NCBI GenBank assembly: GCA_963660905.1
Contig: CAVKZJ010000003.1
Span: 42,160 to 106,159 of the forward strand
Source: a bacterium
Lineage (GTDB): Bacteria; Bacillota_I; Bacilli_A; RFN20; CAG-288
Reading direction: 5' to 3'
Length of the DNA: 64,000 bases
The notes beneath the pieces were generated by a model. It ran no database searches. It was not told the origin of the DNA and was given only the letters and a program-made list of their open reading frames with translations. Each line of letters opens with the position of its first letter. Within the stretch, counting starts at the first letter, position 1. Shown one piece after another: positions 16,275 through 64,000 of the stretch. The position numbers and the translations under genes were made by a program.

Positions 16275-16305
16275 GGCTAAGGAGAGGCTTCCTTAGCCCT
16301 TTCTT
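16275..16305 (+). terminator. hairpin terminator after GH3 paralog 2
   Basis: AGGGCTAAGG-agaggcttc-CTTAGCCCT hairpin followed by TTCTT; the T-run is weak. Confidence 0.4.
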
Positions 16306-16310
16306 AAAGA

Positions 16311-27022: not shown

Positions 27023-27106
27023 GCGGACGTGGCGAAATTGGTAGACGCGTACGTTTGAGGGGCGTATGGGCTTCCCATGTCGGTTCGATTCCGACCGTCC
27101 GCACCA
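27023..27106 (+). tRNA. tRNA-Leu (GAG anticodon), type II with long variable arm
   Basis: Manual fold: GCGGACG/CGTCCGC acceptor stem, 3-bp D-stem, TACGT/GCGTA anticodon stem with loop TTGAGGG (anticodon GAG), GGGCTTCCC variable hairpin, GTCGG/CCGAC T-stem, 3' CCA. Confidence 0.8.
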
Positions 27107-35222: not shown

Positions 35223-36132
35223 AGAAAATCTGTCATCCATGAGTGAAGCGGAAATTGAGAGACTATGTACGATTGCGAGCGTTGAAAGACTGAAAAACAT
35301 CCTGATTGATTATTATGGAGATGAATCAACTAGAAGAAAGCATTACGGAAAAGGATCGAAAGAGTGGAATAATAAAGACAAAAAAAATCCGCCAGCCTCC
35401 TTTGTGAAGAGTTTCTTTGTGTTTCTCTTCACCAAGGAAGAGAATGTTCCTGAAAAATATTATCAGCTGTTCGAAGAGAAACTTTTGAAGACGATTGTCG
35501 GGAAGGAAAAATATCAGAATGCCTCTGCGGAGATGATCCATTCTTCTATCGATGAGGATGAGAAATATAGCCAGAGAGACTATAAGGCGATTCTCTATAA
35601 GGCTTTTGGTTTTGAGTTGGAAAAGGAAGAAGACCTCCCTGTAGAGGAAGCCGACGAAGAGGAAGAAAAGGAAGAAGTGAAAACCAAATTCTCCTTGCCT
35701 AAGATTTCCAAGAAGGATGATGTGGAGACAAGAATCAATCAAGCTGTCAGCAAGCAGGCCAAGGAAGACAAGAAAAACTACGATGACCTGAAGAAGAAAT
35801 ATGACGCATCGGAAAACAAGCTCAAAAAAGCTCAAGAGGATCTTTCTGTTCTGAAGAATTCCTACTCCACGCTGAAAAAAGAACGCGATGGATTCGAAAA
35901 AAAGAATGCGGAGAATGAGGAAAAATTATCTTCCATCCTGAAAAAACTGAATACTCTATCGAAAAGAAAGATGGCTGATCTTGATAAAAATACGCTTTTG
36001 GTTGAGCAGAGCAATGCCGTGGAAATTCTTCAGCTGGCCATCGATGAATTGAAGAAATCCCATTATTCTCTCTCGATGGATCAGATTGTGAAGGCCTATG
36101 TGATTTTAGGTCTTCTTGAGAAGGGAGAATGA
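35209..36132 (+). CDS. coiled-coil protein (307 aa), function unknown
   Basis: Globular N-terminal domain, acidic linker (EEADEEEEKEE), long heptad-like Lys/Glu-rich segment; 14-nt overlap with the upstream gene and ATGA overlap with the downstream gene. Confidence 0.55.
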   Translation: MYLNKENLSSMSEAEIERLCTIASVERLKNILIDYYGDESTRRKHYGKGSKEWNNKDKKNPPASFVKSFFVFLFTKEENVPEKYYQLFEEKLLKTIVGKEKYQNASAEMIHSSIDEDEKYSQRDYKAILYKAFGFELEKEEDLPVEEADEEEEKEEVKTKFSLPKISKKDDVETRINQAVSKQAKEDKKNYDDLKKKYDASENKLKKAQEDLSVLKNSYSTLKKERDGFEKKNAENEEKLSSILKKLNTLSKRKMADLDKNTLLVEQSNAVEILQLAIDELKKSHYSLSMDQIVKAYVILGLLEKGE

Positions 36133-38087: not shown

Positions 38088-39747
38088 ACTCTTCGTCACG
38101 ATAAATAAAGAGGAACCGATTGCCTTTGATCTTTTAAAGGAAAAGGAAAGAATCCTCTTTTCAATGAATGATACCTGCCACCTTCGTGTTTCTTTTCATA
38201 CGGATTCCAACGGCCGGTTTTCCATGCAGTGCTATCAGGCATTGAATGAAAAGAAGAACAAGAAAATCACGATTGAAAAAAACATCCTCCTCTTGGATAA
38301 GGATGTTACGTATTATGTTTCCGGAGGAAGCGAATATTATTACCTTCCGGGAGTCTATTGTCTTTACTATGAATGCACCACGGGCAAGAAGACATTCTAT
38401 TTTGAAGTGAAAAATAATTCTGTCTTGGGAAAGGATGGATTTGGAAACATCATCGTAAGACTCGAATCGATTCTTCAGAATATCACCCGTGAGCTTTCCA
38501 GGAAAGGCGATGTGGATTCTTCCGAGCAGTCCTATCCTCTTTTGGCACATCGATTGGAAGAAAATTTTCCTTCCTTCAAGGAACTTGAAAGAAGGATGCT
38601 TTCCTGTCTGAAGGAGGATGTGGTGACGGTCTATGGCTTTTTTTCCTCTGGAAGAGAAGACTACAAGACATTCAGGAGAAACGTCACGCATCCTTTTTCG
38701 GAAAAGATGACGAAGAAAAAAAGACTCTCCTATGATTCGAACGAAAACCGTTTTCTGAAGTATCGGATGAATGCCTTCAAAAGAAAGATATCTTCCCTTT
38801 TGAATTCCCTGAAGGAACAAGAGGTGAAAAATCATCTCTTGCAAAAGGAAGGGATGGAAAAACAGGAAGAGCTTACCAAAAAAAGAGAAGAGAATCTCTA
38901 TATGGATGCTCGGCTTTCCAAGGAAGACCTTGTTCTCCAAAAGAAACAGAATGAGCTGCGAGGAGAAGACAAAGTCATATCTGGCCTGATGGAAATTTTG
39001 ATGAGATACTATCGCATCTGCGGTTCCTTTCTGCAAGATGAAAGAATCAAGAAGGTCAGACTTCTCTCGACACCATCCTATTTATCTTCCTCGCCGATGG
39101 CAAAAGAAATCCGTGACATGCAAAAGAAGATTTTTCCAGATAAGGATAAAGTCTCCTATAAACCGGCTCGCGAACTGTTCGAACTCTATGGCTATTATCT
39201 GATCCACACGGCTTTGATGGAACTCGGCTATCAAAAAACAGACCAATCTCTTTCTGTCCTCAAGGAAAATGAAAGCTTTTTTGTCTATGAAAGTGAACAG
39301 AGGATGGTCAAGGTTCTCTATGGTCCCTTCTGTAAGGATTTCCTTACCAATAAAGAGATGGATTGCACGGTCAGCATCAATTCTCATCACCGATCGCCTG
39401 ATTTCATCATGGAAGTCTATGATTCAAACACAAATGTCTTCCTTTTCGATTTGGTTTTGGAAATCAAATATATCCCGATTTTCAAGTTTGAGGAAAAACC
39501 GGATCTGAAAAAGGATATTTTATTGACAGCGAGCGACTATCTCCAATTCGGCTTTGTCTCTTCAGAAGGATTGCGAGTCGGTGCCGTGAGAAAAGTGATG
39601 ATTCTTTTCCCATCATTGGAAGAGAAAATTGACGACTATCTTTCTTTCCATAAGATTTATCTCTTAGGCATCGACATGAATAAGGAGACCGATGAAAGCA
39701 TGGTCTATTCCTTCCTGAGAGAAGAATTAAGCAAAGAAAATGAATGA
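38071..39747 (+). CDS. McrC-like PD-(D/E)xK endonuclease with long N-terminal extension
   Basis: C-terminal PDF...D-x-EIK motif (SPDFIMEVYD...FLFDLVLEIKY) consistent with the McrC nuclease core; coiled-coil segment in the middle; 17-nt overlap with the McrB-like gene. Confidence 0.65.
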   Translation: MAMSDKLFVTINKEEPIAFDLLKEKERILFSMNDTCHLRVSFHTDSNGRFSMQCYQALNEKKNKKITIEKNILLLDKDVTYYVSGGSEYYYLPGVYCLYYECTTGKKTFYFEVKNNSVLGKDGFGNIIVRLESILQNITRELSRKGDVDSSEQSYPLLAHRLEENFPSFKELERRMLSCLKEDVVTVYGFFSSGREDYKTFRRNVTHPFSEKMTKKKRLSYDSNENRFLKYRMNAFKRKISSLLNSLKEQEVKNHLLQKEGMEKQEELTKKREENLYMDARLSKEDLVLQKKQNELRGEDKVISGLMEILMRYYRICGSFLQDERIKKVRLLSTPSYLSSSPMAKEIRDMQKKIFPDKDKVSYKPARELFELYGYYLIHTALMELGYQKTDQSLSVLKENESFFVYESEQRMVKVLYGPFCKDFLTNKEMDCTVSINSHHRSPDFIMEVYDSNTNVFLFDLVLEIKYIPIFKFEEKPDLKKDILLTASDYLQFGFVSSEGLRVGAVRKVMILFPSLEEKIDDYLSFHKIYLLGIDMNKETDESMVYSFLREELSKENE

Positions 39748-47582: not shown

Positions 47583-47659
47583 CGGGACGTAGCGCAGCTT
47601 GGTAGCGCACTTCCTTGGGGTGGAAGGGGTCATGGGTTCAAATCCCATCGTTCCGACCA
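47583..47659 (+). tRNA. tRNA-Pro (GGG anticodon)
   Basis: Manual fold: CGGGACG/CGTTCCG acceptor stem, GCGC D-stem, CTTCC/GGAAG anticodon stem with loop TTGGGGT, ATGGG/CCCAT T-stem, 3' CCA. Confidence 0.85.
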
Positions 47660-47844: not shown

Positions 47845-50800
47845 ATGTATTATATGATGCTCGAAGTTAGGCATCTGATGCGTACATACAGGGTGAAGAA
47901 TGCCGATCCTGTCTATGCGCTGAATGATGTGTCATTGAAATTCCCGGAAACGGGTCTTGTCTTTATTTTAGGTAAATCTGGTTCAGGAAAATCCACTCTT
48001 CTCAACGTCATGGGCGGATTGGATAAGGCGGATGATGGCGAAATCATCATCAATGGAAAATCCTCGAAGGAATTTTCGGGAAGCGAGATGGATTCCTATC
48101 GTAACACCTATCTCGGCTTCATCTTTCAGGAATACAATATTCTTTCTGATTTCACGGTCAAGGAGAATATTGCCCTTGCTCTGCAATTGCAGCATAAGAA
48201 GGCCACCGATGAGGCCATTGAGAACATTCTTAAGGAAGTCGATCTTTCCGGATATGGAAAAAGAAAGCCGAATGAACTCTCCGGCGGTCAGAAGCAGAGA
48301 GTCGCCATCGCCAGAGCCTTGGTCAAGGAACCGAAAATCATCTTCGGCGATGAACCGACTGGTGCCTTGGATAGCAATACAGGAAAGCAGGTTTTCGAAA
48401 CACTGAAGAAGCTTTCGAAGACGAAGCTGGTCGTCATCGTTTCCCATGACCGTGATTTTGCAGAACACTTCGGTGACAGAGTCATCGAACTGAAGGATGG
48501 GAAAGTCATTTCGGATATCACCAAGACGAGTGTAGAAAGCATCAAGGCTACTTCAGGTCTGTCCTTGATTGGCGACAACATGATCCGAATCGAAAAGAAC
48601 CGACCTTTGACAGCGGAAGATCTTCCCTTGATCAACAAAGCCATCGAGAACGCGAGTAGCGATATCTATATCACCGCCGATAGCCATGCCAATGAAGCAC
48701 TCTGTGAAGCGGCAAGAATCGATAAGGATGGAAATCGTCAGGAATTTGTTTCCACTGATCCAGATAAGATCAAGATGGGAAATGATTCCTTCGATGTCGT
48801 CAAAAGCCGTTTCTCTTTAGGCCATGCCTTCAGAATGGGTGGAAAATCCATGCGAGTGAAGCCTTTCCGTTTGGTTTTCACGATTTTCCTATCGACCATC
48901 TCCTTCTCTTTGTTCGGAACAAGCGCCACTTTGGCGATGTTCTCTGAAAAGAGTGCGGTCAAGAATGTCATCCAGGATAACAAGATCGATGTTCTTTCCC
49001 TCCGCTATTCGGATAAAACGGAAAACGGCAAACAATCGGAAGGATTGAGCGAAGAGAAGATTGCCGAAGTCAAGAAGGAAACCGGGGTGCAGATTTATAC
49101 CTCCAAATACAGCAATCTCAATCTGAATGTGAATACATCAGGCAATGACTTTTTCCATGCGACACAGATGAATTATGCCATGGAAGCAAGTCAGCAGATG
49201 ATGGATGATCTTGGCTTTTCATTGACATGCGGAAATCTTCCGACAAACGAGAGTGAAATCTGTCTTTCCCTTTATGCCTACTATTCTTTGCAGGATTTGG
49301 GAACGAGCACCATCGAGAAGCCGGAGGATGTCCTCGGCATGGAATTCAGCGTTTATCAGTATTCCTCTTCCTCGTCAAGGACATTGACGCTCACGGGCAT
49401 TATCGATACGAAGCTTCCTGAAAAGTATCTCCAGTACCGAACTTCGACGGAGAAACTCGATTGGAGCAATCCGGATTATCAGGCTCTCATGAATTTGAGA
49501 AACAATAGTTCGATTCATACGACCTATTTCTATGGAGGCTCTCAGGGTTCTCAAGGACAGGACAGCGATATCATCATAAATACAAATCTTATGCCGGATG
49601 GTGATAAGTACTACAATCTTTCCTTGGCCTATTATGCCAATCATGCCGATACCTATTTCTTCGATAAGAGCAAGACGAGTCTTTCTTCTGAAGAGGCACT
49701 TGTCTCATCCGAATATTTCCTCAATCTTTTAAGCCAGTCGTCATCTTCCACAAGTGAAAACACATATAGTTTTACCTTCACGGGTGCGCCGGAATACTTT
49801 GGAGGAACCGATTATTCCTTCACGGATGAATCAGAGAACATGATTTCAGAGCATATTCAGCAGGCCGCAAGTTATAAGACAATCAATGACAAGTATAGTG
49901 ATTTCTACCAGAATGATTTTGCGATAGCAAAAGCAATCAATGAAGGAACTGGTTCATACGATCGATGTACTGTGATCATGCCTTCTTATGATTCCGCGTC
50001 TGGAACTGAGGTCTATAAAGATGAAGACTATCAGAATGCGACGAATGAACAGAAGTATCAGCTGTTCAGCTATTATTTCAATAACTATATCCGAAATCAG
50101 AACGACATTTCCTCTTCTTATTACAATTACTATCTGGATGCCATTTCGGGATATCAGAAGGAATTGGCAAACAAATATTCCAACCTGACTGCAGAGTTCA
50201 TCAATCAACAGACTAATGATATTTCTATGAAACTGCAAAATGAATATATTTCGAAATACTATGAGGAAGCCTATCAGAAATACAAAAATCAGTCGTATTA
50301 TGCGGATGCAATCAATCAATTGAAAAAGCAGTACAAAGTCGATGAAGTGACGGATGCCATCAAAAAAGATGTTTTCCAAATGTACTTCTATCAGACTTCA
50401 TATTATAAGCAGTATCAAAGCGACTATAAGAAAAAACAGAAAGAAATCTTCCAGAATTATGATTTCTCGTCTCTGAATTTGAGCATTGTCCCATCAAGTT
50501 CGGAAGATGATAAATATTCTCTCTCCTTCCCGACCTTCCGTGTTGTCGGCGTAGACTTCGACCTGAATTACATGAACATGGCCATCTCCAAGAATGATGC
50601 GGAAACTCTCAAGGCCAAAGAAAATGAAATGGGAATCAGCTACGAAAATCAAATCACGACGGGATATGTCGGCATCTCCAATCAGAATATGGATAAATTC
50701 CTCGATTTCTATTTCAAAAAGAAGAAGTCGCTCGAGGATTATGAATCTGCGGCAGTTGGTTCCTGGAAGTTTGCGATTACCAATAGCGAAGTTTCGACAA

Positions 50801-51234
50801 CAGAGAGCTATGCCTATATGATTGCCATACTGACTCAGGTCTTCCTTTATGTCGGTATTGTCCTAGCCATATTCAGTATGCTTCTCTTCTATAACTTCAT
50901 CTCCGTGTCCATCAATAACAAGAAGAGAGAAATCGGTATTCTCAGGGCAGTCGGTGCCAAGAGAAGCGATGTCTTCAAGATCTTCTATTCCGAAGCCTTC
51001 ATCATCGCGATGTTCAACTTTGTCTTCTCTACCATCATCACCTTCATTCTCTCCTACATCCTAAATCAGGGATTCAAGGAAGCAGCCAGCTTATCCTTCA
51101 ACCTCATGAATCCGAATATCCTAATTATTTTGCTTCTGTTCGGCGTTGCCATCCTGACGAGTTTCATCTCCTCGATTCTTCCTGTCACGAAGATTGCCAA
51201 CAAGAAGCCAATCGACGCAATTCAGAATCGTTAA
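47845..51234 (+). CDS. fused ABC transporter ATPase plus MacB/FtsX-type permease with about 650-aa extracytoplasmic domain
   Basis: N-terminal Walker A GKSGSGKST, ABC signature LSGGQKQR, Walker B IFGDEP; a TM segment at about residue 340, then a long Tyr/Ser/Asn-rich extracellular region; C-terminal FtsX-like 3-TM bundle; the start could be 47854. Confidence 0.85.
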   Translation: MYYMMLEVRHLMRTYRVKNADPVYALNDVSLKFPETGLVFILGKSGSGKSTLLNVMGGLDKADDGEIIINGKSSKEFSGSEMDSYRNTYLGFIFQEYNILSDFTVKENIALALQLQHKKATDEAIENILKEVDLSGYGKRKPNELSGGQKQRVAIARALVKEPKIIFGDEPTGALDSNTGKQVFETLKKLSKTKLVVIVSHDRDFAEHFGDRVIELKDGKVISDITKTSVESIKATSGLSLIGDNMIRIEKNRPLTAEDLPLINKAIENASSDIYITADSHANEALCEAARIDKDGNRQEFVSTDPDKIKMGNDSFDVVKSRFSLGHAFRMGGKSMRVKPFRLVFTIFLSTISFSLFGTSATLAMFSEKSAVKNVIQDNKIDVLSLRYSDKTENGKQSEGLSEEKIAEVKKETGVQIYTSKYSNLNLNVNTSGNDFFHATQMNYAMEASQQMMDDLGFSLTCGNLPTNESEICLSLYAYYSLQDLGTSTIEKPEDVLGMEFSVYQYSSSSSRTLTLTGIIDTKLPEKYLQYRTSTEKLDWSNPDYQALMNLRNNSSIHTTYFYGGSQGSQGQDSDIIINTNLMPDGDKYYNLSLAYYANHADTYFFDKSKTSLSSEEALVSSEYFLNLLSQSSSSTSENTYSFTFTGAPEYFGGTDYSFTDESENMISEHIQQAASYKTINDKYSDFYQNDFAIAKAINEGTGSYDRCTVIMPSYDSASGTEVYKDEDYQNATNEQKYQLFSYYFNNYIRNQNDISSSYYNYYLDAISGYQKELANKYSNLTAEFINQQTNDISMKLQNEYISKYYEEAYQKYKNQSYYADAINQLKKQYKVDEVTDAIKKDVFQMYFYQTSYYKQYQSDYKKKQKEIFQNYDFSSLNLSIVPSSSEDDKYSLSFPTFRVVGVDFDLNYMNMAISKNDAETLKAKENEMGISYENQITTGYVGISNQNMDKFLDFYFKKKKSLEDYESAAVGSWKFAITNSEVSTTESYAYMIAILTQVFLYVGIVLAIFSMLLFYNFISVSINNKKREIGILRAVGAKRSDVFKIFYSEAFIIAMFNFVFSTIITFILSYILNQGFKEAASLSFNLMNPNILIILLLFGVAILTSFISSILPVTKIANKKPIDAIQNR

Positions 51235-51617: not shown

Positions 51618-51845
51618 ATGATTATTGTCAACGTCGATGTCGAACTTGCCAAGCACAAGATGACGGTCACGGAACTGTCCGAGAAACTTGGCCTTACCAT
51701 GGCGAATGTTTCCATTCTGAAGAATGGAAAGCTCAAGGCCATCAAATTGAAGACCTTGGACAAACTCTGTGAGATTTTTGACTGCCAGCCGAGCGATCTC
51801 TTCGAATATCGTCCGGATGTCAAGGAAGACGAAGAAGAGAAGTAA
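51618..51845 (+). CDS. XRE/Cro-type HTH transcriptional regulator (YozG-like)
   Basis: 75 aa; HTH MTVTELSEKLGLTMANVSILKNGK; acidic C-terminal tail. Confidence 0.8.
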   Translation: MIIVNVDVELAKHKMTVTELSEKLGLTMANVSILKNGKLKAIKLKTLDKLCEIFDCQPSDLFEYRPDVKEDEEEK

Positions 51846-51848
51846 ACA

Positions 51849-52208
51849 ATGAAAGAAAAAAAGGCTGTTGACCAAGCGGAAGCGGAAGCGAGAAAAATGC
51901 ATCTTCCTCCATTCTATTTGGGATACAGCCTTTTTGTGTTGTGCGGAATCCTTTCCATGCTCATCATTCTCTTCTTTGCAGTCTTCACCTCGGAAAATCA
52001 TTCCGGAGACCTGATGCTGCACGCCGTCTTGATTGTCGAACTTGCCGGAATCGGCTATTTTCTTCCATTCTACTTCCTTCCGGAAGTCTTGGGTATCACT
52101 CGATATGAAAAAATGAGAAAACCAAACCTGATCTTCTTGATCATCAACACGGTTTTGTTTTCCTGCTTCTATCCGATTCTATCTTTGCTTTTCTCGCTTA
52201 CATGCTAA
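51849..52208 (+). CDS. small membrane protein (DUF2975-like partner of the YozG-type regulator)
   Basis: 119 aa, 3-4 TM helices; 4 nt after the HTH gene; such pairs are common in Firmicutes, and the family assignment is by architecture only. Confidence 0.55.
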   Translation: MKEKKAVDQAEAEARKMHLPPFYLGYSLFVLCGILSMLIILFFAVFTSENHSGDLMLHAVLIVELAGIGYFLPFYFLPEVLGITRYEKMRKPNLIFLIINTVLFSCFYPILSLLFSLTC

Positions 52209-52992
52209 AGAAAGGCGCTGTTTCAGAGACCATGATTTCCTTATCCCCGATGAGGAATTTTTTTTGTTTTCCTATGTAAATCTCGATTGTGTTTTCCTGT
52301 CGGATGGGAAGATTCATGAACCCATAGCGGATACGATATTCCATAAGGGAATGGATGATCAGCTTTTCATTTCTGAAGGAAATGTCCATGCTCGCTTCCT
52401 TGAAGTCGGGATAGGAGTCGAATTTTCCTCGATTTTTTATGGATAGGGAAAGATGGCAGTGAGTGATTTTTGGGTTCAGGGAAAGAGAATAGGTCTCCTC
52501 TTCCTTATGGATGGATTTGATTCCATCTAAAATGATGTCTTCCGGGAATAGATTCTGGATTGTCATGGATTTCTCGTTTTCTTCTTCCTGGAAGAGTTCA
52601 TTGAGAATCTCATCCTTTTTTCTTGGCTGACAGAAAACCGAATATTTTTTCTGGCAGAGTTTCCCATATGTTTGGATGTAGGTTTGATAATCATATTCCT
52701 TCGGATTCTTTTTTAGGAGATCCGTCTTGTCTTTTCCTTGGTATTCCTTAATCTTGCCATGATTGTCATCGATGGTGAAACTCGCAAAATGGACAAAGCA
52801 GGAATCCGAGAGAGTGGTGATCATGCTTTTCTCTTCCATATAGAAGGCATCTGAATATGTTTTCTGTGTTGTCTCGATGCCCATTAAGGAGACAAAGGAA
52901 AGAGTCTCGGAATGAAGATAGAGTTCATCCTGGGAAAGATAGAAATCCAGGTTGGACAATAAATCTTGAATCAGGTTTTCTTTTACGTTCAT
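52198..52992 (-). CDS. hypothetical protein, paralog of the C-terminal part of the membrane protein at 58428-59663
   Basis: Shared block KKNPKEYDYQTYIQTYGKLCQKKY versus KKNNTPKEYTYDEYIQSYGKLLQGSYY and downstream similarity; no TM segment; start is uncertain (trimmed to MNVKEN, weak RBS). Confidence 0.45.
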   Translation of the reverse strand: MNVKENLIQDLLSNLDFYLSQDELYLHSETLSFVSLMGIETTQKTYSDAFYMEEKSMITTLSDSCFVHFASFTIDDNHGKIKEYQGKDKTDLLKKNPKEYDYQTYIQTYGKLCQKKYSVFCQPRKKDEILNELFQEEENEKSMTIQNLFPEDIILDGIKSIHKEEETYSLSLNPKITHCHLSLSIKNRGKFDSYPDFKEASMDISFRNEKLIIHSLMEYRIRYGFMNLPIRQENTIEIYIGKQKKFLIGDKEIMVSETAPFFSM

Positions 52993-53074
52993 ATGTTTAT
53001 TATACCATTGTACTTTTTCTGGCCAAGCAAAAGAAAAAATATGATATGATAAATGCAAGAAGGAGTTATGAACA

Positions 53075-53977
53075 ATGTCCATATTCACAGTCAAAATCAA
53101 TGATGAATTTTCTCTCAGGGGAAATGATTATCTCATCGAGAATTCGAAAGCCCATCTTCTTGCCATCACAGGCATGAATGAGCATTCTTCCCGTTATGAG
53201 ACGTTCGCTAAGGAACTCAATGCCCATGGCTATTCGGTTTCGGTCTTGGATCATTTCGGCCAGGGAGAGAATGCTCCAAATCCCGATGATCAGGAAAAAT
53301 GGCCGGTTGGCGCATGGAAGATGATGCTCAAGGCTTTGAACAACAAAGTGCAGGAACTGAGAAAGGATGGCAAGCCCGTCTATCTGATGGGACATTCCAT
53401 GGGAAGCTTTGCCATGCAGGCCTACTTGGAAAACTATCCAGACACGATTGACAAGATCATCATCATGTCGAGCAATGGAATGAATAATAGACTCGCCATT
53501 AAGATGGGCTATTGTCTTTCCAAGATGACAACCAATAAGAAGAATTTCGACAAAGAAGATAAATTGATGGCCAAGATGTCTCTCGGTCCTTATATCAAAT
53601 CGGTAAAGGATCGTGAGGATGACAATGACTGGCTTTCCTTCAACAAGGAAAATGTCAAATGCTACAATGCCGATCCGTATTGCGGACACTATAATACCCA
53701 TGGCTTTTTCTTAGGCTTCATGACGGGATTGAAGGAACTCTATAAAAAGAAGAATCTCGCCAAGATTTCCAAGAACGAAAAGATTCTCATTGTGGCAGGA
53801 ACGGAAGATCCGGTGGGCGCCTTTGCAAAAGGACCAAAATCCCTCGAAAAAATGTATCGTTCTTTGGGTATAAAGGATGTCACGCTGATTCTTTATCCAA
53901 ATATGCGTCATGAAATCCTCAATGAAACAGAAAGAGACAAAGTCGTCAACGATATCATTTCCTTCCTCGATAAGTGA
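53075..53977 (+). CDS. alpha/beta hydrolase (lysophospholipase / monoacylglycerol lipase-like)
   Basis: GHSMGS nucleophile elbow; a conserved Asp and HE.L near the C-terminus make a plausible catalytic triad; 300 aa. Confidence 0.8.
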   Translation: MSIFTVKINDEFSLRGNDYLIENSKAHLLAITGMNEHSSRYETFAKELNAHGYSVSVLDHFGQGENAPNPDDQEKWPVGAWKMMLKALNNKVQELRKDGKPVYLMGHSMGSFAMQAYLENYPDTIDKIIIMSSNGMNNRLAIKMGYCLSKMTTNKKNFDKEDKLMAKMSLGPYIKSVKDREDDNDWLSFNKENVKCYNADPYCGHYNTHGFFLGFMTGLKELYKKKNLAKISKNEKILIVAGTEDPVGAFAKGPKSLEKMYRSLGIKDVTLILYPNMRHEILNETERDKVVNDIISFLDK

Positions 53978-54004
53978 TTCGAAAAAAGGAATAGACCCTA
54001 GGAT

Positions 54005-57000
54005 CTATTCCCAATAGCAGAAGTAGGCGTTGTTCTTCAAGGAATCCGGATAGGCTGAACTGGAAGACCAATCGCTTGTGACGGATTTTGTTTTCGACTT
54101 CCCGTTGTCAGTCGGTGTTCCTGCGGATTCCACTGCGCTGATTTCGTAGATGTCGGAACCGAGTTCATCATAGACGAGATTCCAATATTCATAATATCGT
54201 TTCATATAGGTCTTTGCCGTACTGGCGGAGACCTTTTCTAGACGGCTCAGTGTGAATGTGTTGACGCTCGACGAGGAGGTGATATTGACCGTCAGAACGG
54301 AAACAGATAGCATTCCATCAATGGCAATGGATTTCAGGGGCTTATAGGATTTGCCGTTGAGGGTCGTTTCATCCTCATGCTTGATCGTAAGCTTGAGCGA
54401 ATCGATTGAGGCAGGAGATATGTTGAGGAAATCCTTGAGGTTGAGGTCAAGGACGAAAGTGTTCGTCGAAGAATCATAGGATGTGGAATCGGCCTTGATG
54501 ATGGTGGAGAAGTCATTGCTCATGGAGGCAGTGCTATCACTGGAATTCATCGCTTTATAGATTTCGTTGAGAGCGATGTTCCCAGATTCGACAAAAAGTG
54601 TTTTCACGCTTCCGATATTCATCGAATAGTCGAGGATATAGTAAGCTATATTCTTAACGATGTTTTCGCTTGTTGTCTTGTAATAGGTGGAAGAAGCTGT
54701 ATAACGGTATTCTGTTTTTCGATTGAAAATAGAACCGGTTTTCTGTGTTTCGCTTGAAATTGTCGTCTGGTTGACTAGGACTTCCTTTTCCTTGATGAAA
54801 TATTCCGTGACCCTGTTGCCACTATCCGTGACTTTCTTGTTGAACGCGTTGATTCTCAAATAGGCATATGCGGTTTCATTTTCGACGTAGATTTCCGCAT
54901 AGGCACTTGCAGTCACATTTTCGAGTGAAATACCGATGGCTTTGATGTCCAAACTCAAAGTTCCGCTTATCTCGAAGAAGTTGTTTTCCGTGGTATCAAT
55001 TGTACATTCAAGCAGAATTTTGAATCCATCGATATCGACAAAGGAAGAGGATGTGACGTCGGAAACATATTCGAGCATGGTCTTGCTTTCCTTTGTCTTG
55101 GATGTATCCTGCGTCAATGTGCGGGCATAGGATTTCTCATTTCCTGCTTTGAGTGAAAGCGAGAGATCAAGATTGGTCGTCTTTGTCTTTTCATCGACGA
55201 GGTGAATGTATTTTGCCTTGATGGATGCGCCTGTGACCTTCTTTTCCGTGGTGTCATATTGGATTGTCAGAACAGCTTCACTTCCCTCGAGCGAATCGCT
55301 TTTCACAAGCTTCGGATCCAAGCAAAGCGTGATGCTTCCTTCCTGGAAGGATAAGGATTTTAGATATTTGTAGGCAAAGATTCCTGATGTCGACAAGGCT
55401 TTTCCATTGATGACATCCATCAGTGGCGAACCACTTGTCTCGACGACCGAATTCATGAATTTCAGATAACGGAAGAGAAGATTCGAATCGCTGTCGACGC
55501 CATTGATCGTATTCATGATGGAATAGAGATCGCTGTTTTCCATCTTGACGTGCATGTTGTCATTGTATTCCAAAGTGAATTGGCTTCTGTTGACTAGGTT
55601 ATGGGAATTGTTTTCGATCTGTCCATCCAGATCCTGAAGAGCGAATTCGAGTTTCTGGTCTGAGGATGCCTTGCTGGAGTCATTGATATCCTTGTGGGTC
55701 AGGGTGACTTCCCCGGAGATATCCTTCTTTTCACCTGTCATGTCTGCGCTGAGACCTGAGCCTTCCTTGATGGATAAAGTGGGAACGCTGTCTCCTTCAT
55801 TCTGAAGCGTTCCGCTTAAGGATAAGTCGAACTGCTTCAGATCGGTCGGAAGAGAGAAGAGAGATTCAGACAAGGCTTCGAAATTCGTAATCGGAGGATA
55901 GTCAGTTACATTGAAGGAAGAAGAATGATCTTTAACCTGATCAGAGAAGTTCATGCTGAAGGCGAGATTGCATCCGTTTGCTTTTCCTTTGATGGACAAG
56001 GAAAGGATTTCATTTGTCTCAGACAGGGTCAAAACGAATTTCTCTGTATTGCTTTCGTATTTGCTTCCGGCAAAGAACGTCGATGGGTCAAGCGTGAGCT
56101 TGATCGTTCCCTGTTCATCGCTCGAAAGGGAAACAACTCCATCGAGTCCCTTTAAAGAGAGATGATTGCATAAATCATCCTTGAGTGTCTTGAAGGATTC
56201 GCTCTTCGAAAGTGTCTGAAGAATATCCGACATCGAGAAGATGCTCGAGGACGTGTTGGAAGAATCATCCTGGACTTTGGAGTCGATGAGAGCATACATG
56301 GAACGGATATCGCTATCGCTTAAGGAATTGCGGAAGACATAGTCACTGTCCTGATTATATCCATATCCGAAATAGAGATTTTTATCCGTGCCGGAATAGT
56401 ACATCTCGATTCCCTGTCCGATGATGCTCTTTTCATCATTCTTCGAAGAGGGAAGATTCAGGGAGAGGTAGTAGTCGCCTAAGGATGTATAGAGTGTGTT
56501 CTGATCGATGACTCCATTTTTGGAGACATCGACGCTGATTTCTCCTTCTCCATTGAAGGTGACATTCTGCTGATCGGTGAAGATGAGCGAATAGTCCACG
56601 CTGAGTTTTTTCTTGTCGATGAGATTTGCCAAAGAGGAGAACAGATCAAGGCTTTCCGTATAGGAATCATAGTCTTCCTCATTTGGTGGAGTGATCGTGG
56701 TGAAATTGGAAATGGAGAAGGAAAGATTCTCTATGGCGATATCTCCAAAATCCAGTCTGGAAAGAGTGATATCCTTTACTTCATATCCTTCCTCTTCTAA
56801 ATCATTGAAGGAAACTGTCAAGCTAAGATCATCCTTCAAGGATAAGGAAGTGCCATCCAGGGTGATAGAGAAGGATGTCGAAGAGAAGTGATACGCTTTC
56901 AAGAGACCATTGAGGGGGGATAAATCCCCGTTTTTGATCTTCTCAATGCTGCTTTTGTCAACTTTTTTGAAGATGATATTGAGGTTCTCATCGATTTTTT

Positions 57001-58249
57001 CAATCGTAAAATCATTTAACAGTTTACTGATTGTGTTAAAAGTATCTTTCAATTTGCTGTTATCGATTCTTCCTTTGAAAAAACTGTTGAGAGAAAGATA
57101 ACTGGTGCTTTTCTTGAAGTACAAGTCGATGTCATTCAAGGATTTCCCATCGAATGCTTCCTTTTCGTTCTGATCCAAACAGAGAGCATATTCACCGACA
57201 TTGCTATCCAAGAACACGTCTGTGATATCGCAATCCAGTCTTCCTTTTAGATAGGAAGTCTTCGTTGTGGAGTCGTCGATCTTTTTTGATAAATTCGCTT
57301 TTAGATTTATTGAGAATTGCTTCTTTTCTTCTGTGTTGCCAGCGGAGGAATATTTTCCTGAGAAGATATCAGAAAGCAAGGAAAAGATGGAAGAATCCTG
57401 TGATGTGATATCTGTGGAGGAAGAAGAATGGCTTGTATAGGTTGAGATCTCCTTCACATTCTTGATCGTTCCTTCAAGAGCAAAGGCGGAGGTGACATTC
57501 TTCTCAGTCGAGGAAAGAAGAACTTTGTCTTTTGTCTTGATGGAGGTTGGATTTTCCTGCTTGTCTGAAAAAAGAAGGAGAGATAGATTTTGGATATTCG
57601 TTGTCCCGATTGTGAAATCAGGAAGAGAGACGAGGAAGGAATTCTGTGAATCGGATGTTGTGTTTTCTATCGCATTGGCACTCGCTTTCTGTAAAGAAGA
57701 AAAAAGAGAATACAAAGAAACATTTCCACTTTCCGATTTGGAATTGATGTTTAATCCCAACTGCTTGAGCAATCCAAAGAGGTCATCAAATGTCTTGGGA
57801 AGGCTTGTCTTTATGGCGTTTCCTTTTTCTGTGGAGAGATAGAGGTAGTCGTCGGCTTTGTATTCACAGTCGAGATTGATCTTCAACCCTTTATAGGATG
57901 CTGTCAGATTCGTATAGAAATTGAAGGAAAGGGTATTGCTTCCGCTTAGGTCCAAATCAAGGTCTTTCATTTCCAATGCCAAGACATCATTGACAGAGGA
58001 GATATCGGGTGTGATGCTGATTTTCAAGGTATCCATCTGAATCTGTTTGGCAGAAAAGAAACGATTCAGGGCTGTCGAAAGAGAATTGTCGATTCTGTCA
58101 TTCTGATTCTTGTCGATGTCAGGAAGAATGTTTTCTTGGCAGTTTGACTGCTCTTTCTGGATGGAATTTCTTTGGTCGACAAAAGATTCCTGAAAAGGAG
58201 TGATCAAGAAAAGGGTGAAGAAAAGTCCACGAATTGCATTCTTTTTCAT
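54005..58249 (-). CDS. giant Ser/Thr/Asn-rich secreted protein (about 1414 aa), function unknown, probable surface protein
   Basis: Start trimmed to MKKNAIRGLFFTLFLI (signal peptide); low-complexity but non-repetitive polar composition; C-terminal region homologous to the downstream-window part of the gene at 59667. Confidence 0.65.
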   Translation of the reverse strand: MKKNAIRGLFFTLFLITPFQESFVDQRNSIQKEQSNCQENILPDIDKNQNDRIDNSLSTALNRFFSAKQIQMDTLKISITPDISSVNDVLALEMKDLDLDLSGSNTLSFNFYTNLTASYKGLKINLDCEYKADDYLYLSTEKGNAIKTSLPKTFDDLFGLLKQLGLNINSKSESGNVSLYSLFSSLQKASANAIENTTSDSQNSFLVSLPDFTIGTTNIQNLSLLLFSDKQENPTSIKTKDKVLLSSTEKNVTSAFALEGTIKNVKEISTYTSHSSSSTDITSQDSSIFSLLSDIFSGKYSSAGNTEEKKQFSINLKANLSKKIDDSTTKTSYLKGRLDCDITDVFLDSNVGEYALCLDQNEKEAFDGKSLNDIDLYFKKSTSYLSLNSFFKGRIDNSKLKDTFNTISKLLNDFTIEKIDENLNIIFKKVDKSSIEKIKNGDLSPLNGLLKAYHFSSTSFSITLDGTSLSLKDDLSLTVSFNDLEEEGYEVKDITLSRLDFGDIAIENLSFSISNFTTITPPNEEDYDSYTESLDLFSSLANLIDKKKLSVDYSLIFTDQQNVTFNGEGEISVDVSKNGVIDQNTLYTSLGDYYLSLNLPSSKNDEKSIIGQGIEMYYSGTDKNLYFGYGYNQDSDYVFRNSLSDSDIRSMYALIDSKVQDDSSNTSSSIFSMSDILQTLSKSESFKTLKDDLCNHLSLKGLDGVVSLSSDEQGTIKLTLDPSTFFAGSKYESNTEKFVLTLSETNEILSLSIKGKANGCNLAFSMNFSDQVKDHSSSFNVTDYPPITNFEALSESLFSLPTDLKQFDLSLSGTLQNEGDSVPTLSIKEGSGLSADMTGEKKDISGEVTLTHKDINDSSKASSDQKLEFALQDLDGQIENNSHNLVNRSQFTLEYNDNMHVKMENSDLYSIMNTINGVDSDSNLLFRYLKFMNSVVETSGSPLMDVINGKALSTSGIFAYKYLKSLSFQEGSITLCLDPKLVKSDSLEGSEAVLTIQYDTTEKKVTGASIKAKYIHLVDEKTKTTNLDLSLSLKAGNEKSYARTLTQDTSKTKESKTMLEYVSDVTSSSFVDIDGFKILLECTIDTTENNFFEISGTLSLDIKAIGISLENVTASAYAEIYVENETAYAYLRINAFNKKVTDSGNRVTEYFIKEKEVLVNQTTISSETQKTGSIFNRKTEYRYTASSTYYKTTSENIVKNIAYYILDYSMNIGSVKTLFVESGNIALNEIYKAMNSSDSTASMSNDFSTIIKADSTSYDSSTNTFVLDLNLKDFLNISPASIDSLKLTIKHEDETTLNGKSYKPLKSIAIDGMLSVSVLTVNITSSSSVNTFTLSRLEKVSASTAKTYMKRYYEYWNLVYDELGSDIYEISAVESAGTPTDNGKSKTKSVTSDWSSSSAYPDSLKNNAYFCYWE

Positions 58250-58427
58250 TTGTCTATTGTGCTCGGGAGAAAGTATACACATTTTTTGCGTCAAAGAAAA
58301 CAATATTTTCTTCTAACAATCTGACATGAAAACAGTTTTGATATTTAATTATTTTGAAGCTAGAATGTTTATAAAAGAAATATTTTACTTTTGTTTTCTT
58401 TCAACGTATATTTATGTGGTAAAAAAG

Positions 58428-59663
58428 ATGGAAGAAAAAAATAAAGAAGAAAAAGAGAGCCAAGATTTGGTTTGTAAACCAAAAGAAGAAGCACAAAAGC
58501 AGGATGAGGCTCGCATAAAGGAAAAGAACCGAAAAAAGATCAAGGCAAAACCGGATGCCAAGAAGAAAAACTGGATCCCTGTTGCCATTGTCGTCTCCGT
58601 TTCGATTCTTGTCGGTGGAGGAGGAGGCTATCTCCTTTACCGTTGGCAGAATCCGGAATCAGCCACGTTGGCAGGTGCGGGTTTTGAAGGATATGTTCCT
58701 TCCAAGGATGAGATCCAGAAATCGATTTCCAATAATTCATTGGAAAAAGACTATGAAGGAAAATTCTATCAACTGGTGAATTATGCTTTATCGATACAGG
58801 GACAAAGCAAGTACGCGCTGACGATTGGCAAGGCAAAGGTCGTTGCCAATGCAGGTGTCTCCGTCACGCAGAACATCGTTTCCTGCAATTACACGACGCC
58901 GGAAGGAATCTACAATCAGAATGTCTCTTCCTCAAGCGTGGTCAAGACGGCCAACCGCTTCTATGACAATCTCGATGGAAAGGTTCTCGGATATCTCGAG
59001 TCTGTCCCGGATGATTGGAAGAAGAACAATACGCCCAAGGAATATACCTATGACGAATATATCCAAAGCTATGGAAAACTTCTTCAGGGTTCGTATTACT
59101 GCACGACGGTCTTAGATTCGTCCCATGTGACTGAGGCGACGCCGATCTCGGATCGCTATCTGACCTCGGATAAGAGCGTCTATGATTCCTCATCTGAGAA
59201 AAGCAAGCACCATGTCAATGGGGTTGTCATCTATCTCATCGGGCCAAGCAGCGTGAAGAACTCATCCCTTGAGAAAAAGGATGATGGGTATCTTATCTCG
59301 CTTGACCTCTATACAGATAAGGATCGAAAGTCGGCGAGCGATGAAGAAAAAAAGAAGATCTCCATCGGCAATACCTATTATTCTGTTCAGATGCGAACCA
59401 CTGGTGGGCTTAATTCAAGACCATCGTTCTCTCTCACTCATCTCGAATTCACCTTGGATGAAGAACTCCAGCTAGTGTCAACTTATTTCAAGGACGAATA
59501 TTCTGCAACCGTCGGACCGATCAGCTCGACGACCGCAAGCGATATGTATCAGTATTATTTCCGTTCGGAGAGCAATGTCTTCTCCGGCGTGGAAGTCACT
59601 ATTCCCAAAAGCGATGACCCAGATAATTTCGCGGGGTATCAGCTATTTCCTCAGGAGGCTTAG
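58428..59663 (+). CDS. membrane-anchored protein (N-terminal Lys/Glu-rich cytoplasmic tail, single TM, extracellular domain)
   Basis: TM WIPVAIVVSVSILVGGGGGYLLY; 3 nt upstream of the giant-protein gene; start uncertain between 58326 and 58428. Confidence 0.5.
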   Translation: MEEKNKEEKESQDLVCKPKEEAQKQDEARIKEKNRKKIKAKPDAKKKNWIPVAIVVSVSILVGGGGGYLLYRWQNPESATLAGAGFEGYVPSKDEIQKSISNNSLEKDYEGKFYQLVNYALSIQGQSKYALTIGKAKVVANAGVSVTQNIVSCNYTTPEGIYNQNVSSSSVVKTANRFYDNLDGKVLGYLESVPDDWKKNNTPKEYTYDEYIQSYGKLLQGSYYCTTVLDSSHVTEATPISDRYLTSDKSVYDSSSEKSKHHVNGVVIYLIGPSSVKNSSLEKKDDGYLISLDLYTDKDRKSASDEEKKKISIGNTYYSVQMRTTGGLNSRPSFSLTHLEFTLDEELQLVSTYFKDEYSATVGPISSTTASDMYQYYFRSESNVFSGVEVTIPKSDDPDNFAGYQLFPQEA

Positions 59664-59666
59664 AAT

Positions 59667-62600
59667 ATGAAAAAAAACACATGGAAAAGAATCGGAGCAT
59701 TGACACTTTTGGGTGCCTTCAGTGCTTCTGCTTCCGGATCCGCTGTCTATATGATGATGCATGCCACGAAACAGAATCAGGATGCTTCCGACGATATTAC
59801 GATTCCGGATATCGATGACAACAATCAGGAAAAGGAAGAGACCAATCTTTCCAAGACATTGAATTCCTTATTGAATTCCAAGGAGATTTCTTCTGGAAAT
59901 CTTTCCCTGTCCATCAAACCTGTGGGCAAGGAATCCATCGACTTAAAGCTGAACAGTCTCAATGTCGACCTAAGCAAGCTCAACACGAGCGTCGTCAATG
60001 TCGCAACGGATGTCCAGGTTCTTTATGGTAAGTCTTCGACAACAGAGGAAAATGCTGTCAAGAGACTCAATCAGACACTTTCCTTGCGTGTGGAAGAAAA
60101 CGAAGCGTGCTATGTTACCTTCAAGAATCGTAATTTCTGTTTCGATATTCCCCAGAATCTTTCAGATCTGATGGAAATCTTCAAGGCACTCGGCCTTGTC
60201 AAGACAAATGATGCCACTTCAACTTCCTCTTTAGACCTCTCTTCAATCGTCTCGAAAGTCCAGGACTTGGCAGGTGAGATTACGGCGACGGATTCCATTG
60301 AGGATACCGCAAGCGACTTGGTTCATTTCGATATCTCGATTCCAGAAATCACGATTGGCAATACAAAGATCGGAAGCGATGCAGGAAAACTGAATCTGAC
60401 ATTGTATGCGACCAAAGACACCTATCGTCTGAAGAAGATCCAGACGAAGGAAGATATCGCGATCTATTCCAGAAAGGATGAGTCCTCTTCTTTCGAAAAG
60501 AATTTAGCCCTTTCCCTGGATGGACAGATTGAGCTTAAGGAAGTCAGCAGCTATAAGACCTTGACTTCCGAGCAGATCTCGACGTATTCCAATGTCACGG
60601 ATGCCAACACGTCGATTTTCTCGACGATCCAGGATGTCATGGGCAACGATTCGGATGTCTCTTTGGCTGTCCATGTTGAGAAGAGCGTTTCGGATGCTTC
60701 GTCAAGCAGTGTGCAATCCTCCTTCGATGTGAACGGATTGCTTGCGATGGATTGTAAAAAGAATAATTATTCTCTTTCTTTGGACCATCTGAGTGCCGAT
60801 AATGAGAATCTTAATTCCTTGGATGTGAAATTCATCGATAAGAATCTTTATCTGAAGCTGAATGAACTGGTGAAGGGAAGAATATCGGATACCAAGATTA
60901 CCGAGATGTTCTCTTATATTACGAAGATCACGTCTTCTCCATTGATTGAGGTCTTTGCCTCGGAGACACAAACAGTCTTGGGAACTCTGGATATCGACAA
61001 ACTGAAGGATGGCGATATGACGCAGATCCAAGGACTCTTGGATCAGGAGAATACCTATTTCGACTATGATTCCTCCACCTCGAGTTTCACCCTTTCCATC
61101 GATGGAAGCTATCTTGGATTGACGGATGGGGCCATCGTCTTAAAGATCAAATGTTCTTCGGAAAAGAAAATCGAGAAAATCACGATCGAAGGACTCTCCT
61201 TCTCTTCGACGGATTCCACGTCCAATAAGAAAGAGACAACGACGATTTCTCTTTCGATGACTCCAAAAGCATCTACTCAAGAAACCAAAAAGGAATTGAC
61301 TATCAGCGAGGAAGAAAAGAGCCAGTATCAGAATCTTGCCCCGGCCTGTGATATTTTCTCCTCCATTTCGAATTTTGCCCAGAACCAGAAATTCCTGGCA
61401 GATTATACCTTGACCTACAATGACAAGATCAATGACGGAACCAATAATAACTATTCCATGATTTCGGCCAGCGGTTCCATCGGAGCGGATCTTACCTCTG
61501 TGACGAACAAGGGAACAATCCTTGATAAGGTGAGTCAAGGCGATTATCTTCTTTCCATGAAGGCGAGCTGTGGGGAGAGTGTTCATAATCTGAACATGAA
61601 CTATCAGAATCATTGCCTTTATTTTGGATATGACACAATCTATGGAAACAATCCATCGAATACGGTCTTCAAAAACGAAATCGAGAACGTGAATCTCGGA
61701 AAGATGATGACCATCTTAGATAAGAAAACAAATTCCTCGGTTTCCGTTTCCTTTGACCAGGTCTCCAAAGTTCTGGATTTCCTTGGCATGAACGAGGATT
61801 TCCAAAATGCCATCAGGAAAGTCCAGAGCGGTTCTCTTAAAGGCTTTGATGATGTCTTCACTCTCACCTCGAATGAGGATGAGAATGGCGGATATCTCTC
61901 GCTTGTGTTGAATATCGATAAGATTTTCAAATCGGATTCCCTGATCGGAAAGAATCTGAGCAATATCACGATTCTTCTTTCGACGAAAGATAAAAGCATG
62001 AAGAGTCTTTCCATTTCGACAAAGATTTCTTCCACACAGGATTTCTCCTTCACATTGAATTTCTCTTCTTCCTTCACCTCCTTCATCTTGGACGAGGAAG
62101 CCTGCCAAAAATATCAGAAGATCGAGGACTTCAATACGATTGTCGATTCCTTCTACAATCTTGGAAACCAGATTGAGAAATATGGCATCAAGGTCAATGC
62201 GGAATACAAGAAAGACCCGACGCTGGATGAGAACGGAAGCGTTGTCTCCTATGGCAGTGCCTTGACGTTATCTGGTTCGGCTTATTGGGATTTGAGTGTG
62301 AAAGATGATCCGAAATTTGCCGGCAGCCTTGTTCTTTCCCATCCATTTGTCTCAATCGACAACTCACCTCGAATGAGGATGAGAATGGCGGATATCTCTC
62401 GCTTGTGTTGAATATCGATAAGATTTTCAAATCGGATTCCCTGATCGGAAAGAATCTGAGCAATATCACGATTCTTCTTTCGACGAAAGATAAAAGCATG
62501 AAGAGTCTTTCCATTTCGACAAAGATTTCTTCCACACAGGATTTCTCCTTCACATTGAATTTCTCTTCTTCCTTCACCTCCTTCATCTTGGACGAGGAAG

Positions 62601-64000
62601 CCTGCCAAAAATATCAGAAGATCGAGGACTTCAATACGATTGTCGATTCCTTCTACAATCTTGGAAACCAGATTGAGAAATATGGCATCAAGGTCAATGC
62701 GGAATACAAGAAAGACCCGACGCTGGATGAGAACGGAAGCGTTGTCTCCTATGGCAGTGCCTTGACGTTATCTGGTTCGGCTTATTGGGATTTGAGTGTG
62801 AAAGATGATCCGAAATTTGCCGGCAGCCTTGTTCTTTCCCATCCATTTGTCTCAATCGACAACACATTGAGCGTGAAAAAGACCCAGGCTGATCAGAATC
62901 TGAAGTTCAAATATCAGAAGGATTCCTCAAATGATGGCGAACTGACCGCAGACTATAATGAGCATCTTCATGCTGTCTTGCACTCTTCGACCATCAAGGA
63001 TATGGTCAATACCATCTCTTCGACAAGCGAGACATCCTTGTTGAATAATCTCTTGGATACCTCTTCCTCTGTCGCTTCAAATATGCCGATCAAGGACGTC
63101 ATTTCTCTTTCGGCTCCAAGTCTTCTTCTTTCTTACCCATATATTCAGTCCGTGGATTTTTCCGATACGGACAATGAAATCACCATCAAGGTCGATAAGA
63201 GACTCTATAACATCAAGGAAGAAGGGGATTCTGTCATCCTGAAGATCAAATATGAGGATTCTCAGAATCCGATTCTGACTTCTCTCTCTGTTGATCTCTC
63301 CAAGGAAGGAAAGAGTGTCTGCAAAGGAAGCATCGAGCTTGTTCCTTATTCCGAAGAGGAACTTCCCGACGTCTTGGAATACAATGAAGCCAATAAAGGC
63401 AAATTCGTCTCTCTCGATGGATTGAAGAACCTGACGAAGATGATGATCGATACCACGGAAAACAATTACTTCCACTTCCAGGGATATCTCAATCTGGATT
63501 TCACCATGTTTGAGAATTCCACTTCCCAGCAGCCGATCAATCTGGATGCTCTCTGCTTCGATCTGAATTTCAATGTTTCCCTCTATATCGATGAAAACGG
63601 CGATGTGAATACTTATCTGGCATTGAAGGTCGGAAATGAGACGATTCAGCAATCTGGCTATTATGTGACGGAATTTGCCTTCACAAGCAAAGAAGATGTC
63701 GATTATGTCTATATGGACAACACCAGAACGGATGCTGTCTTGGATGAAAACGAGAATGTCGTCAATCAGATTTCCTCGACGGCTTATCGTGTGACCAAGA
63801 AGGAATTCGAAAACAATATTCTCTACTATCTTGTCTCCCAGGGTCTTGGCATCGATGACAGAATCGCGGGAAAGACCGTGATGGCAAATATCTATCAGAC
63901 ACTGAAGAACAAGGAAGACGGAAAGAATTCCTCTTCGACTCAGAAATCAGAGGATGTCTCCTCTTTGACGACGAATCTGTCCATTCAGCTCAATTCGGAT
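59667..64000 (+). CDS. giant Ser/Thr-rich secreted protein paralog; reading frame interrupted by a 500-bp tandem duplication (as assembled: ORF 59667-62411, continuation in +2 frame from 62364 to beyond the window end)
   Basis: Signal peptide MKKNTWKRIGALTLLGAFSASASGSA; the frame opened manually from 62864 has no stop through 64000 and aligns with the C-terminal third of the 54005-58249 protein (IDTTENNYFHF versus IDTTENNFFEI). Confidence 0.6.
61864..62863 (+). repeat. perfect 500-bp direct tandem duplication (2 x 500 bp)
   Basis: Copy 1 at 61864-62363 and copy 2 at 62364-62863 are identical at every anchor checked (cttattggga at 62281 and 62781; ctcaatcgacaac ending at 62363 and 62863); 500 is not divisible by 3. 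Confidence 0.85.

Follow-up and report, generated by a model that had tools for sequence, protein, structure and literature searches.

The LolA-fold proteins that have so far been studied in single-membrane bacteria work by contacts between proteins: GerS is an activator of the amidase CwlD, and SsdC assembles into a ring (bioRxiv 10.1101/2025.01.13.632879). Mycoplasmas, in turn, need an exported lipid-extracting protein, P116 (PMC10023570). Here we analysed a 64,000-nucleotide (nt) stretch of a bacterial contig (CAVKZJ010000003.1 of assembly GCA_963660905.1, positions 42,160 to 106,159, forward strand; GTDB order RFN20, family CAG-288), hereafter called the window, whose numbering is used throughout unless a locus of a relative is named. 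The window carries a conserved, lineage-restricted and unannotated envelope module, in which a membrane protein with a predicted LolA/LprG-type ectodomain (C) is encoded directly upstream of modular, exported giant proteins. In the clade of the window the giant gene is duplicated: one copy, B, forms an operon with C, and the other, A, is divergently oriented and shares the same intergenic region.

C (58428 to 59663, plus strand) comprises 411 residues. B starts at 59667, and the preliminary description of this DNA was right to place a single-pass membrane protein 3 nt before the plus-strand giant. In the loci L024-L026, for which gene calls exist, the spacing between C and the giant is 16 nt. 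C and the giants are probably co-translated or translationally coupled. A gene start of C at 58428 seems more likely than one at the upstream ATG at 58326, because homologues and a promoter-like site at 58338-58366 favour it. The divergent intergenic region between A and the C-B operon (58250 to 58427) holds promoter-like sites on both strands; such sites did not exceed the shuffle expectation and are indicative only.

We found C directly upstream of a giant in every locus with an available 5' flank (about 20 loci, with giants of 19-100% identity and 3 to about 8 repeats). The whole arrangement is syntenic in the close relatives L001, L002-L004, L007, L009 and L027. Further away, one C and one giant stand among unrelated housekeeping genes (L016-L019, L022 and L024-L026), and L014 has two giants in tandem behind a single C, all on one strand. 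In L030, where the giant (P0081) has about 8 repeats, the upstream gene of 316 residues matches the hidden Markov model (HMM) of C with E=4e-20; in L029, whose giant (P0094) has 3 repeats, a partial open reading frame matching the same HMM (E=3e-13) overlaps the start of the giant by 4 nt. Because this pairing holds across the relatives and that with D, a paralogue of the C ectodomain described below, does not, the invariant unit is C plus one or two giants.

The preliminary description had treated the region as an accessory locus and proposed comparative genomics to look for variability. Instead, the module is conserved and not hypervariable: besides being syntenic, it shows identities between the window and L001 of 88% for A, 93% for B and 90-93% for C, against 96% for UvrC (82% for a nearby ABC-FtsX protein and 81% for D). 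Across the whole family C is the better conserved partner (39-100% identity versus 19-100% for the giants).

Word-indexed searches among 5.8 billion sequences returned 10 clusters for A and 25 for C, and a second such search with the profile of A and B recovered the same 10 proteins. An exhaustive HMM search of 1.84 billion representatives yielded 95 clusters at E<=1e-3, every one of them from Bacilli assembled from gut or rumen metagenomes. Scanning 185,579 species genomes revealed 17 loci in metagenome-assembled genomes from gut and rumen. These genomes are labelled Bacilli, Ca. Enterosoma or 'Erysipelotrichaceae', apart from a few bins with doubtful labels. Three of the bins (L009, L017 and L022) are labelled Bacteroides uniformis, Oscillospiraceae or Alistipes onderdonkii despite a Bacilli-type module, probably through errors of binning or labelling. 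Among the carriers with a name, Ca. Enterosoma (L012 and L015) is the nearest; it corresponds to GTDB genus UBA7642 of the order RFN20, family CAG-288 (PMC8035907), a family for which peptidoglycan is predicted to be absent (PMC10868615). Judged from the sequences recovered, the module is restricted to a lineage of uncultured, mycoplasma-related gut Bacilli.

In C, a disordered, Lys-rich cytoplasmic tail is followed by a single transmembrane helix (residues 48-71 in the 411-residue form) and a predicted LolA/LprG-fold ectodomain of about 320 residues. Its AlphaFold2 (AF2) model reached a predicted local distance difference test score (pLDDT) of 82.7 and a predicted template modelling score (pTM) of 0.78, with the ectodomain above a pLDDT of 90. 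With this model, Foldseek found 11 PDB matches at E<1e-3, of which 10 belong to the LolA superfamily at probabilities of about 1.0. One of these is M. tuberculosis LprG (3mh8, E=3.9e-5, probability 1.0), and LolA (8cgm and 9tp6), 3buu, 4egd, 3bk5, 4z48 and 8i34 were also matched. Among the proteins behind these superfamily matches are P. gingivalis LolA and LolA3, NE2245, a Vibrio lipoprotein-sorting protein domain, DUF1329, S. aureus SAOUHSC_02783 and an ependymin-type protein. The ectodomain of C, and by homology D, is accordingly predicted to form an open antiparallel beta-barrel with a helical plug or lid of the LolA/LprG type, an assignment at the level of the fold only.

At the sequence level, C is not a member of this superfamily. 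Neither C nor D matched the LolA-clan families of Pfam and NCBIfam (LolA, LolB, LppX_LprAFG, MucB_RseB, DUF1329, DUF4367 and others), 24 homologues of C gave no LolA-clan Pfam match at E<=1, and a PDB sequence search with the C profile found nothing. We regard the Pfam hits 'ETRAMP' and 'CD1107-like' on C as spurious, since they lie below the family cut-offs and cover only the Lys-rich tail and the transmembrane helix. C differs from known LolA/LprG proteins in further respects: its ectodomain is longer than their roughly 180-240 residues, its anchor is a transmembrane helix at the N-terminal side, behind the Lys-rich tail, rather than a lipobox or a cleaved signal, it stands in obligate tandem with a giant modular protein, and a cytoplasmic paralogue exists. 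Conservation in C falls mainly on polar or aromatic rather than aliphatic residues (NQNVSSS, TANRFYD, YGKL, YYSVQMRTTGGL and QYYF), a pattern that fits contact with a protein or glycan better than a pocket for acyl chains.

The giant A is an open reading frame of 1414 residues (54005 to 58249, minus strand; 100% identical to P0001) whose short N-terminus resembles a signal peptide and is followed by four X-Y units and a C-terminal domain. B (59667 to 64000, plus strand) has the same module order, is interrupted by a duplication and runs off the end of the window at residue 1278 of 1477. Both proteins align collinearly (BLASTP, 214 bits, E=2e-60, 25% identity over 1296 columns), whereas 30 shuffled versions of B reached at most 24.3 bits against A, which bears out the paralogy claimed in the preliminary description. 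The N-terminal blocks quoted there do align with each other, but they had been assigned to the wrong proteins: LSIKPVGKES... belongs to B and LKISITPDISS... to A. The description of both giants as Thr/Ser/Asn-rich, secreted and without an assignable family was likewise sound. Ser, Thr and Asn together make up 30.6% of A and 29.4% of B, compared to 12-18% in UvrC and MutS2 of the same window, and charged Arg or His residues are few in both. Their N-termini are basic and then hydrophobic, so that export is predicted, as read from the sequence pattern rather than from a dedicated signal-peptide predictor, and a hydropathy scan detected no further transmembrane segment in either protein. N-terminal export signals were predicted for all 47 full-length family members. 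In the window clade, the N-termini of A-type giants are short and signal-peptide-like. Those of B-type and single giants are longer and hydrophobic, and they contain a motif of small residues, SGxAVY, similar to the G-rich transmembrane helix in C. A appears to be exported and monocistronic, with a promoter-like site at 58375-58348 and a terminator-like hairpin at 54012-53987.

None of A, B, C and D has a match in Pfam or NCBIfam, and PDB sequence searches with the A/B profile also found nothing. A phage or defence origin was rejected, as neither PHROGs nor PADLOC gave a match. Compared with the giant adhesins of Bacillota (LPXTG/MSCRAMM, serine-rich repeat and Listeria-Bacteroides-repeat proteins), the giants are similarly exported, very large, Ser/Thr-rich and variable in the number of tandem domains, and two distant members even carry Flg_new repeats. 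An adhesin or S-layer role is plausible. Unlike those adhesins, however, the giants have no LPXTG, SLH, CWB2 or other Pfam adhesin domain, their repeats are ancient, detectable only with profiles and built from two alternating module types, their anchoring, if any, is N-terminal, and a LolA-fold partner is always there. The C-termini of the 47 giants are polar or aromatic, with neither an LPXTG motif nor a hydrophobic tail. The AsmA/TamB/YhdP bridges share with the giants an N-terminal signal or anchor, a length of 1300-1500 residues, a beta-rich composition and a distinct conserved C-terminal domain. But 14 members of the giant family gave no Pfam match to AsmA, TamB, DUF490 or DUF748 at E<=1, helices are regularly placed among their strands, and their hosts are single-membrane bacteria without an outer membrane.

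The giants had been called non-repetitive. This is true of the DNA, where we found no tandem repeats beyond a 500-nt duplication and a 38-nt low-complexity array (58421-58458), and of the plain protein sequence, but not at the profile level, where hhalign resolves four tandem units of about 250 residues. For this analysis the 47 full-length members were aligned and cut at the secondary-structure boundaries of the AF2 model of A, and the pieces were compared by hhalign. X modules (M1, M3 and M5; about 135-150 residues, a block of long strands followed by helices) alternate with Y modules (M2, M4 and M6; about 100-120 residues). The modules matched each other (M1 and M3, 98.6%; M2 and M4, 95.8%; M2 and M6, 96.4%), as did the units composed of them (U1 and U2, 99.4%, E=4e-21; U1 and U3, 98.4%, E=5e-15; U2 and U3, 96.9%) and the N-terminal unit U0 (93.9% with U1, 93.2% with U2). 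In A, on the minus strand, U0 spans residues 60-308 (57326 to 58072, modules N1 and N2), U1 residues 309-547 (56609 to 57325, M1 as X and M2 as Y), U2 residues 548-807 (55829 to 56608, M3 and M4) and U3 residues 808-1081 (55007 to 55828, M5 and M6), followed by a C-terminal region of residues 1082-1364 (54158 to 55006, M7 and M8).

Profile comparison found no relation between this C-terminal region (U4) and the units U0-U3. The motifs best conserved in the family lie here (invariant columns 1070-1204), among them the near-invariant TTENN[FY] of M7, which occurs in almost all members including distant homologues. Module HMMs revealed a common plan of export signal, N1, (X-Y)n, M7 and sometimes M8. 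The number of units is 3 in members of about 1000 residues and 4 in A, B and most others, while two proteins of 2.3 thousand residues have about 8 Y modules; it is these two that also carry the Listeria-Bacteroides (Flg_new) repeats. We also considered whether the giants are chains of C-like domains, an idea without support from the sequences: no giant module showed a profile relation to C or D. The model of A (residues 260-1414, from a 7-sequence alignment) reached a pLDDT of only 48 and a pTM of 0.29, and in this low-confidence model blocks of strands are regularly interspersed with helices. Its Foldseek matches are mostly noise (Mediator, FAS and porins), to which we give almost no weight. 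The sole matches with a probability above 0.8 were to LolA3 (9tp6, about 0.85, E about 0.01-0.02), a hint only, and P116 was not within the top 50 for this pLDDT-48 query.

Gene B is affected by an exact tandem duplication of 2 x 500 nt (61863 to 62862, plus strand; residues 733-899, most of M4 and the start of M5). Positions 61863-62362 are identical to 62363-62862; as the extra 500 nt do not amount to a whole number of codons, the reading frame changes at 62363 and soon ends, with a stop codon at 62409-62411. The duplication is out of register with the internal protein repeats of B. When one copy is removed, B stays open to 64000 and shares 93% identity, along its entire length, with the intact orthologue of 1478 residues in L001. 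The near-identical strain L027 (GCA_963658105.1, 98.6-99.9% DNA identity) has a single copy and an intact B of 1477 residues. Since the truncated product of 914 residues, P0042, is recorded on the same NCBI contig of 110,498 bp, the duplication belongs to the deposited assembly and not to the cutting of the window. Given its round length, its perfect identity and its absence from the near-identical strain, it most probably arose either as an artefact of assembly or through a mutation that is very recent and specific to the strain. The deposited assembly thus shows gene B wrongly, as a truncated protein of 914 residues.

D (52198 to 52992, minus strand, 264 residues) is a paralogue of the C ectodomain (BLASTP E=5e-9 over 89 residues; hhalign probability 98.9%, E=2e-17 over 230 columns), as had been proposed before. 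Having neither a signal peptide nor a transmembrane segment, it is presumably cytoplasmic, to judge from its sequence. A promoter-like site lies at 53026-52999. Divergently paired with D is an alpha/beta-hydrolase of the lysophospholipase or monoacylglycerol-lipase type (53075 to 53977, plus strand, 300 residues; Pfam Hydrolase_4, E=2.8e-41), also without an export signal, which separates D from A. The two genes are neighbours in L001-L005, L007, L009-L011 and L027, and D was found in no lineage beyond the window clade and its nearer relatives. Together with the hydrolase and a small membrane-protein gene, it lies past the 3' end of B and not beside A in L005 and L011, and in L014 neither D nor the hydrolase was detected within the locus. 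By analogy with GerS and CwlD, D may regulate the neighbouring hydrolase. A hydrolase-like gene beside the giant of L030 was rejected as an orthologue (E=0.21).

How might these proteins work together? We tentatively favour a membrane-docked surface stalk complex, although we would rate it slightly short of an even chance. In this scheme C would be the membrane dock or assembly partner of the giants and would act by protein-protein contact, by analogy with GerS-CwlD and SsdC. The giants would project as extended stalks, longer or shorter according to their number of X-Y units, and the conserved C-terminal domain (M7) would sit at the distal end and engage an external ligand. If the hosts are without a cell wall, sortase-type or wall anchoring would be impossible and a dedicated membrane dock would be needed. 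From the differences between the N-termini one may speculate that B and C sit together in the membrane and that A needs the dock. We prefer docking because LolA-fold proteins of other single-membrane bacteria work by protein contact and because the conserved residues of C are polar or aromatic. Several points weigh against the stalk complex. C aligns with LolA and LprG at TM-scores of 0.27-0.44 relative to the target and a root-mean-square deviation of 8-12 A, so the likeness is one of fold only. The stalk shape is deduced solely from the periodicity of the predicted secondary structure and the variation in repeat number, the model of A being poor. Known adhesin, anchoring or ligand-binding domains, including immunoglobulin (Ig)-like, serine-rich repeat (SRR), SLH and CWB2 domains, were not found in the giants with Pfam and NCBIfam. 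Finally, that the organism of the window may have no wall is an extrapolation from the prediction for the family of Ca. Enterosoma.

The leading rival to docking is lipid or lipoprotein capture and transfer, which we consider rather unlikely. Here, C would bind acyl chains and the open sheet-plus-helix modules of the giants would extract or pass on hydrophobic cargo such as host or dietary lipids, with D and the lysophospholipase-type hydrolase handling the cargo on the cytoplasmic side, in functional likeness to Mycoplasma P116 or mycobacterial LprG. The predicted LolA/LprG fold of C would suit this role, but its polar and aromatic conservation would not, and no sequence relation to the LolA-clan families of Pfam, to P116 or to AsmA/TamB was detected. 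The only Foldseek matches of A above a probability of 0.8 are to LolA3, yet they come from a low-confidence model. D, itself a LolA-fold paralogue, always lies beside the lipase-type Hydrolase_4 enzyme, and a MacB/LolD-like ABC-FtsX protein is encoded nearby in two lineages (the window clade and L029); both linkages are, however, missing in most of the distant lineages (L014, L024-L026 and L030). A core function would account for the presence of the module in all the relatives examined, whereas variation in repeat number is commoner in spacer and stalk proteins. There is also the precedent of P116, as the hosts are Mollicutes-like and have reduced genomes. Like P116, the giants are large exported proteins of Mollicutes-type bacteria with a mixture of long beta-sheets and helices, and they could be functional analogues of it if the lipid reading is right; unlike P116, which is a homodimer without a LolA-like partner, they gave no PDB sequence match. 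Slightly less probable still is the more specific proposal that C and the giant form a new envelope machine of possibly wall-less, Mollicutes-like gut Bacilli, in which the anchored LolA-fold carrier and the chain of open-sheet modules would jointly extract lipids or other hydrophobic nutrients from the gut surroundings or shuttle them to the membrane. If true, it would be an independent, non-homologous answer to a problem solved by P116 in Mycoplasma and by LprG and Lpt in two-membrane bacteria.

A passive coat, in which abundant polar giants form a glycocalyx- or S-layer-like barrier or spacer, C serves as the anchor and no specific ligand is bound, seems improbable to us. The Ser/Thr/Asn-rich composition with few charged Arg and His residues, the large size, the variable repeat number and the conserved presence in the lineage would all agree with it. 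But the near-invariant motifs of M7 in very divergent members point to a specific function, and the giants evolve only slightly faster than housekeeping genes. Least probable of all is the duplicated two-component adhesin or S-layer module of the preliminary description, with A paired to D and B to C: both paralogies are real and A and D lie on the same strand less than 1 kb apart, but D without an export signal cannot meet an exported A, the opposite-strand hydrolase stands between them, D follows the hydrolase beyond B upon rearrangement (L005 and L011), L014 has two giants with a single C and no D, and no SLH, CWB2 or LPXTG element was detected. We read D instead as an offshoot of the C family, specific to this clade and presumably cytoplasmic, whose partner is the hydrolase and not A.

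Two small genes next to D are conserved neighbours, which are not shown to be part of the module. A gene for an XRE-type helix-turn-helix (HTH) protein (51618-51845, plus strand, 75 residues) is followed, 3 nt on, by one for a multi-pass membrane protein (51849-52208, plus strand, 119 residues), whose 3' end overlaps the end of the convergent D gene by 11 nt. This pair is syntenic with D and the hydrolase in relatives, and a comparable pair of HTH and DUF2975 genes occurs in L026. Further upstream, 47845-51234 encodes the fused ATP-binding cassette (ABC) ATPase and FtsX permease (1129 residues; MacB/LolD-like, best NCBIfam match LolD), which has an extracytoplasmic domain of about 640 residues and, in the window clade, is separated from the module by a few kb. 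A comparable fusion stands close to the very distant C-giant pair of L029 (6189-8939), where only the ATPase (E=1e-57) and FtsX (E=4e-15) parts are conserved, and none was found near the module in L014, L024-L026 and L030. The ABC-FtsX gene is closely preceded by a gene for tRNA-Pro(GGG) (47583-47659). Downstream of B, close strains carry different genes, and this region looks like a small variable spot beside the conserved module: L027 encodes a protein of 948 residues with weak collagen-repeat matches there (16197-19043 of its locus), and L001 a PDDEXK_2 nuclease-like gene (3096-3973).

Elsewhere in the window, three consecutive GH3 paralogues of 1266, 988 and 989 residues (8396-19680, plus strand) have a permuted order, with the C-terminal domain before the N-terminal domain; the first also has He_PIG Ig-like domains. 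At 36129-39747, an AAA_5 gene (McrB-like, 652 residues) overlaps a DUF2357 gene (McrC-like, 558 residues), probably a McrBC-type restriction system. Genes for tRNA-Met (3135-3209) and tRNA-Leu(GAG) (27023-27106) were also identified.

Giant modular surface proteins are a kind already known; the unusual part of the module is their obligate LolA-fold partner. Bacilli of the RFN20 type and their relatives are common in gut and rumen, yet none has ever been brought into culture; their cell surface is almost uncharted, and the module encodes the largest exported proteins of this lineage, so far without annotation. The predicted fold of C is the first concrete lead to their role, be it the dock of a surface stalk or a lipid carrier. 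If true, it would represent a further case of the LolA fold being used without an outer membrane.

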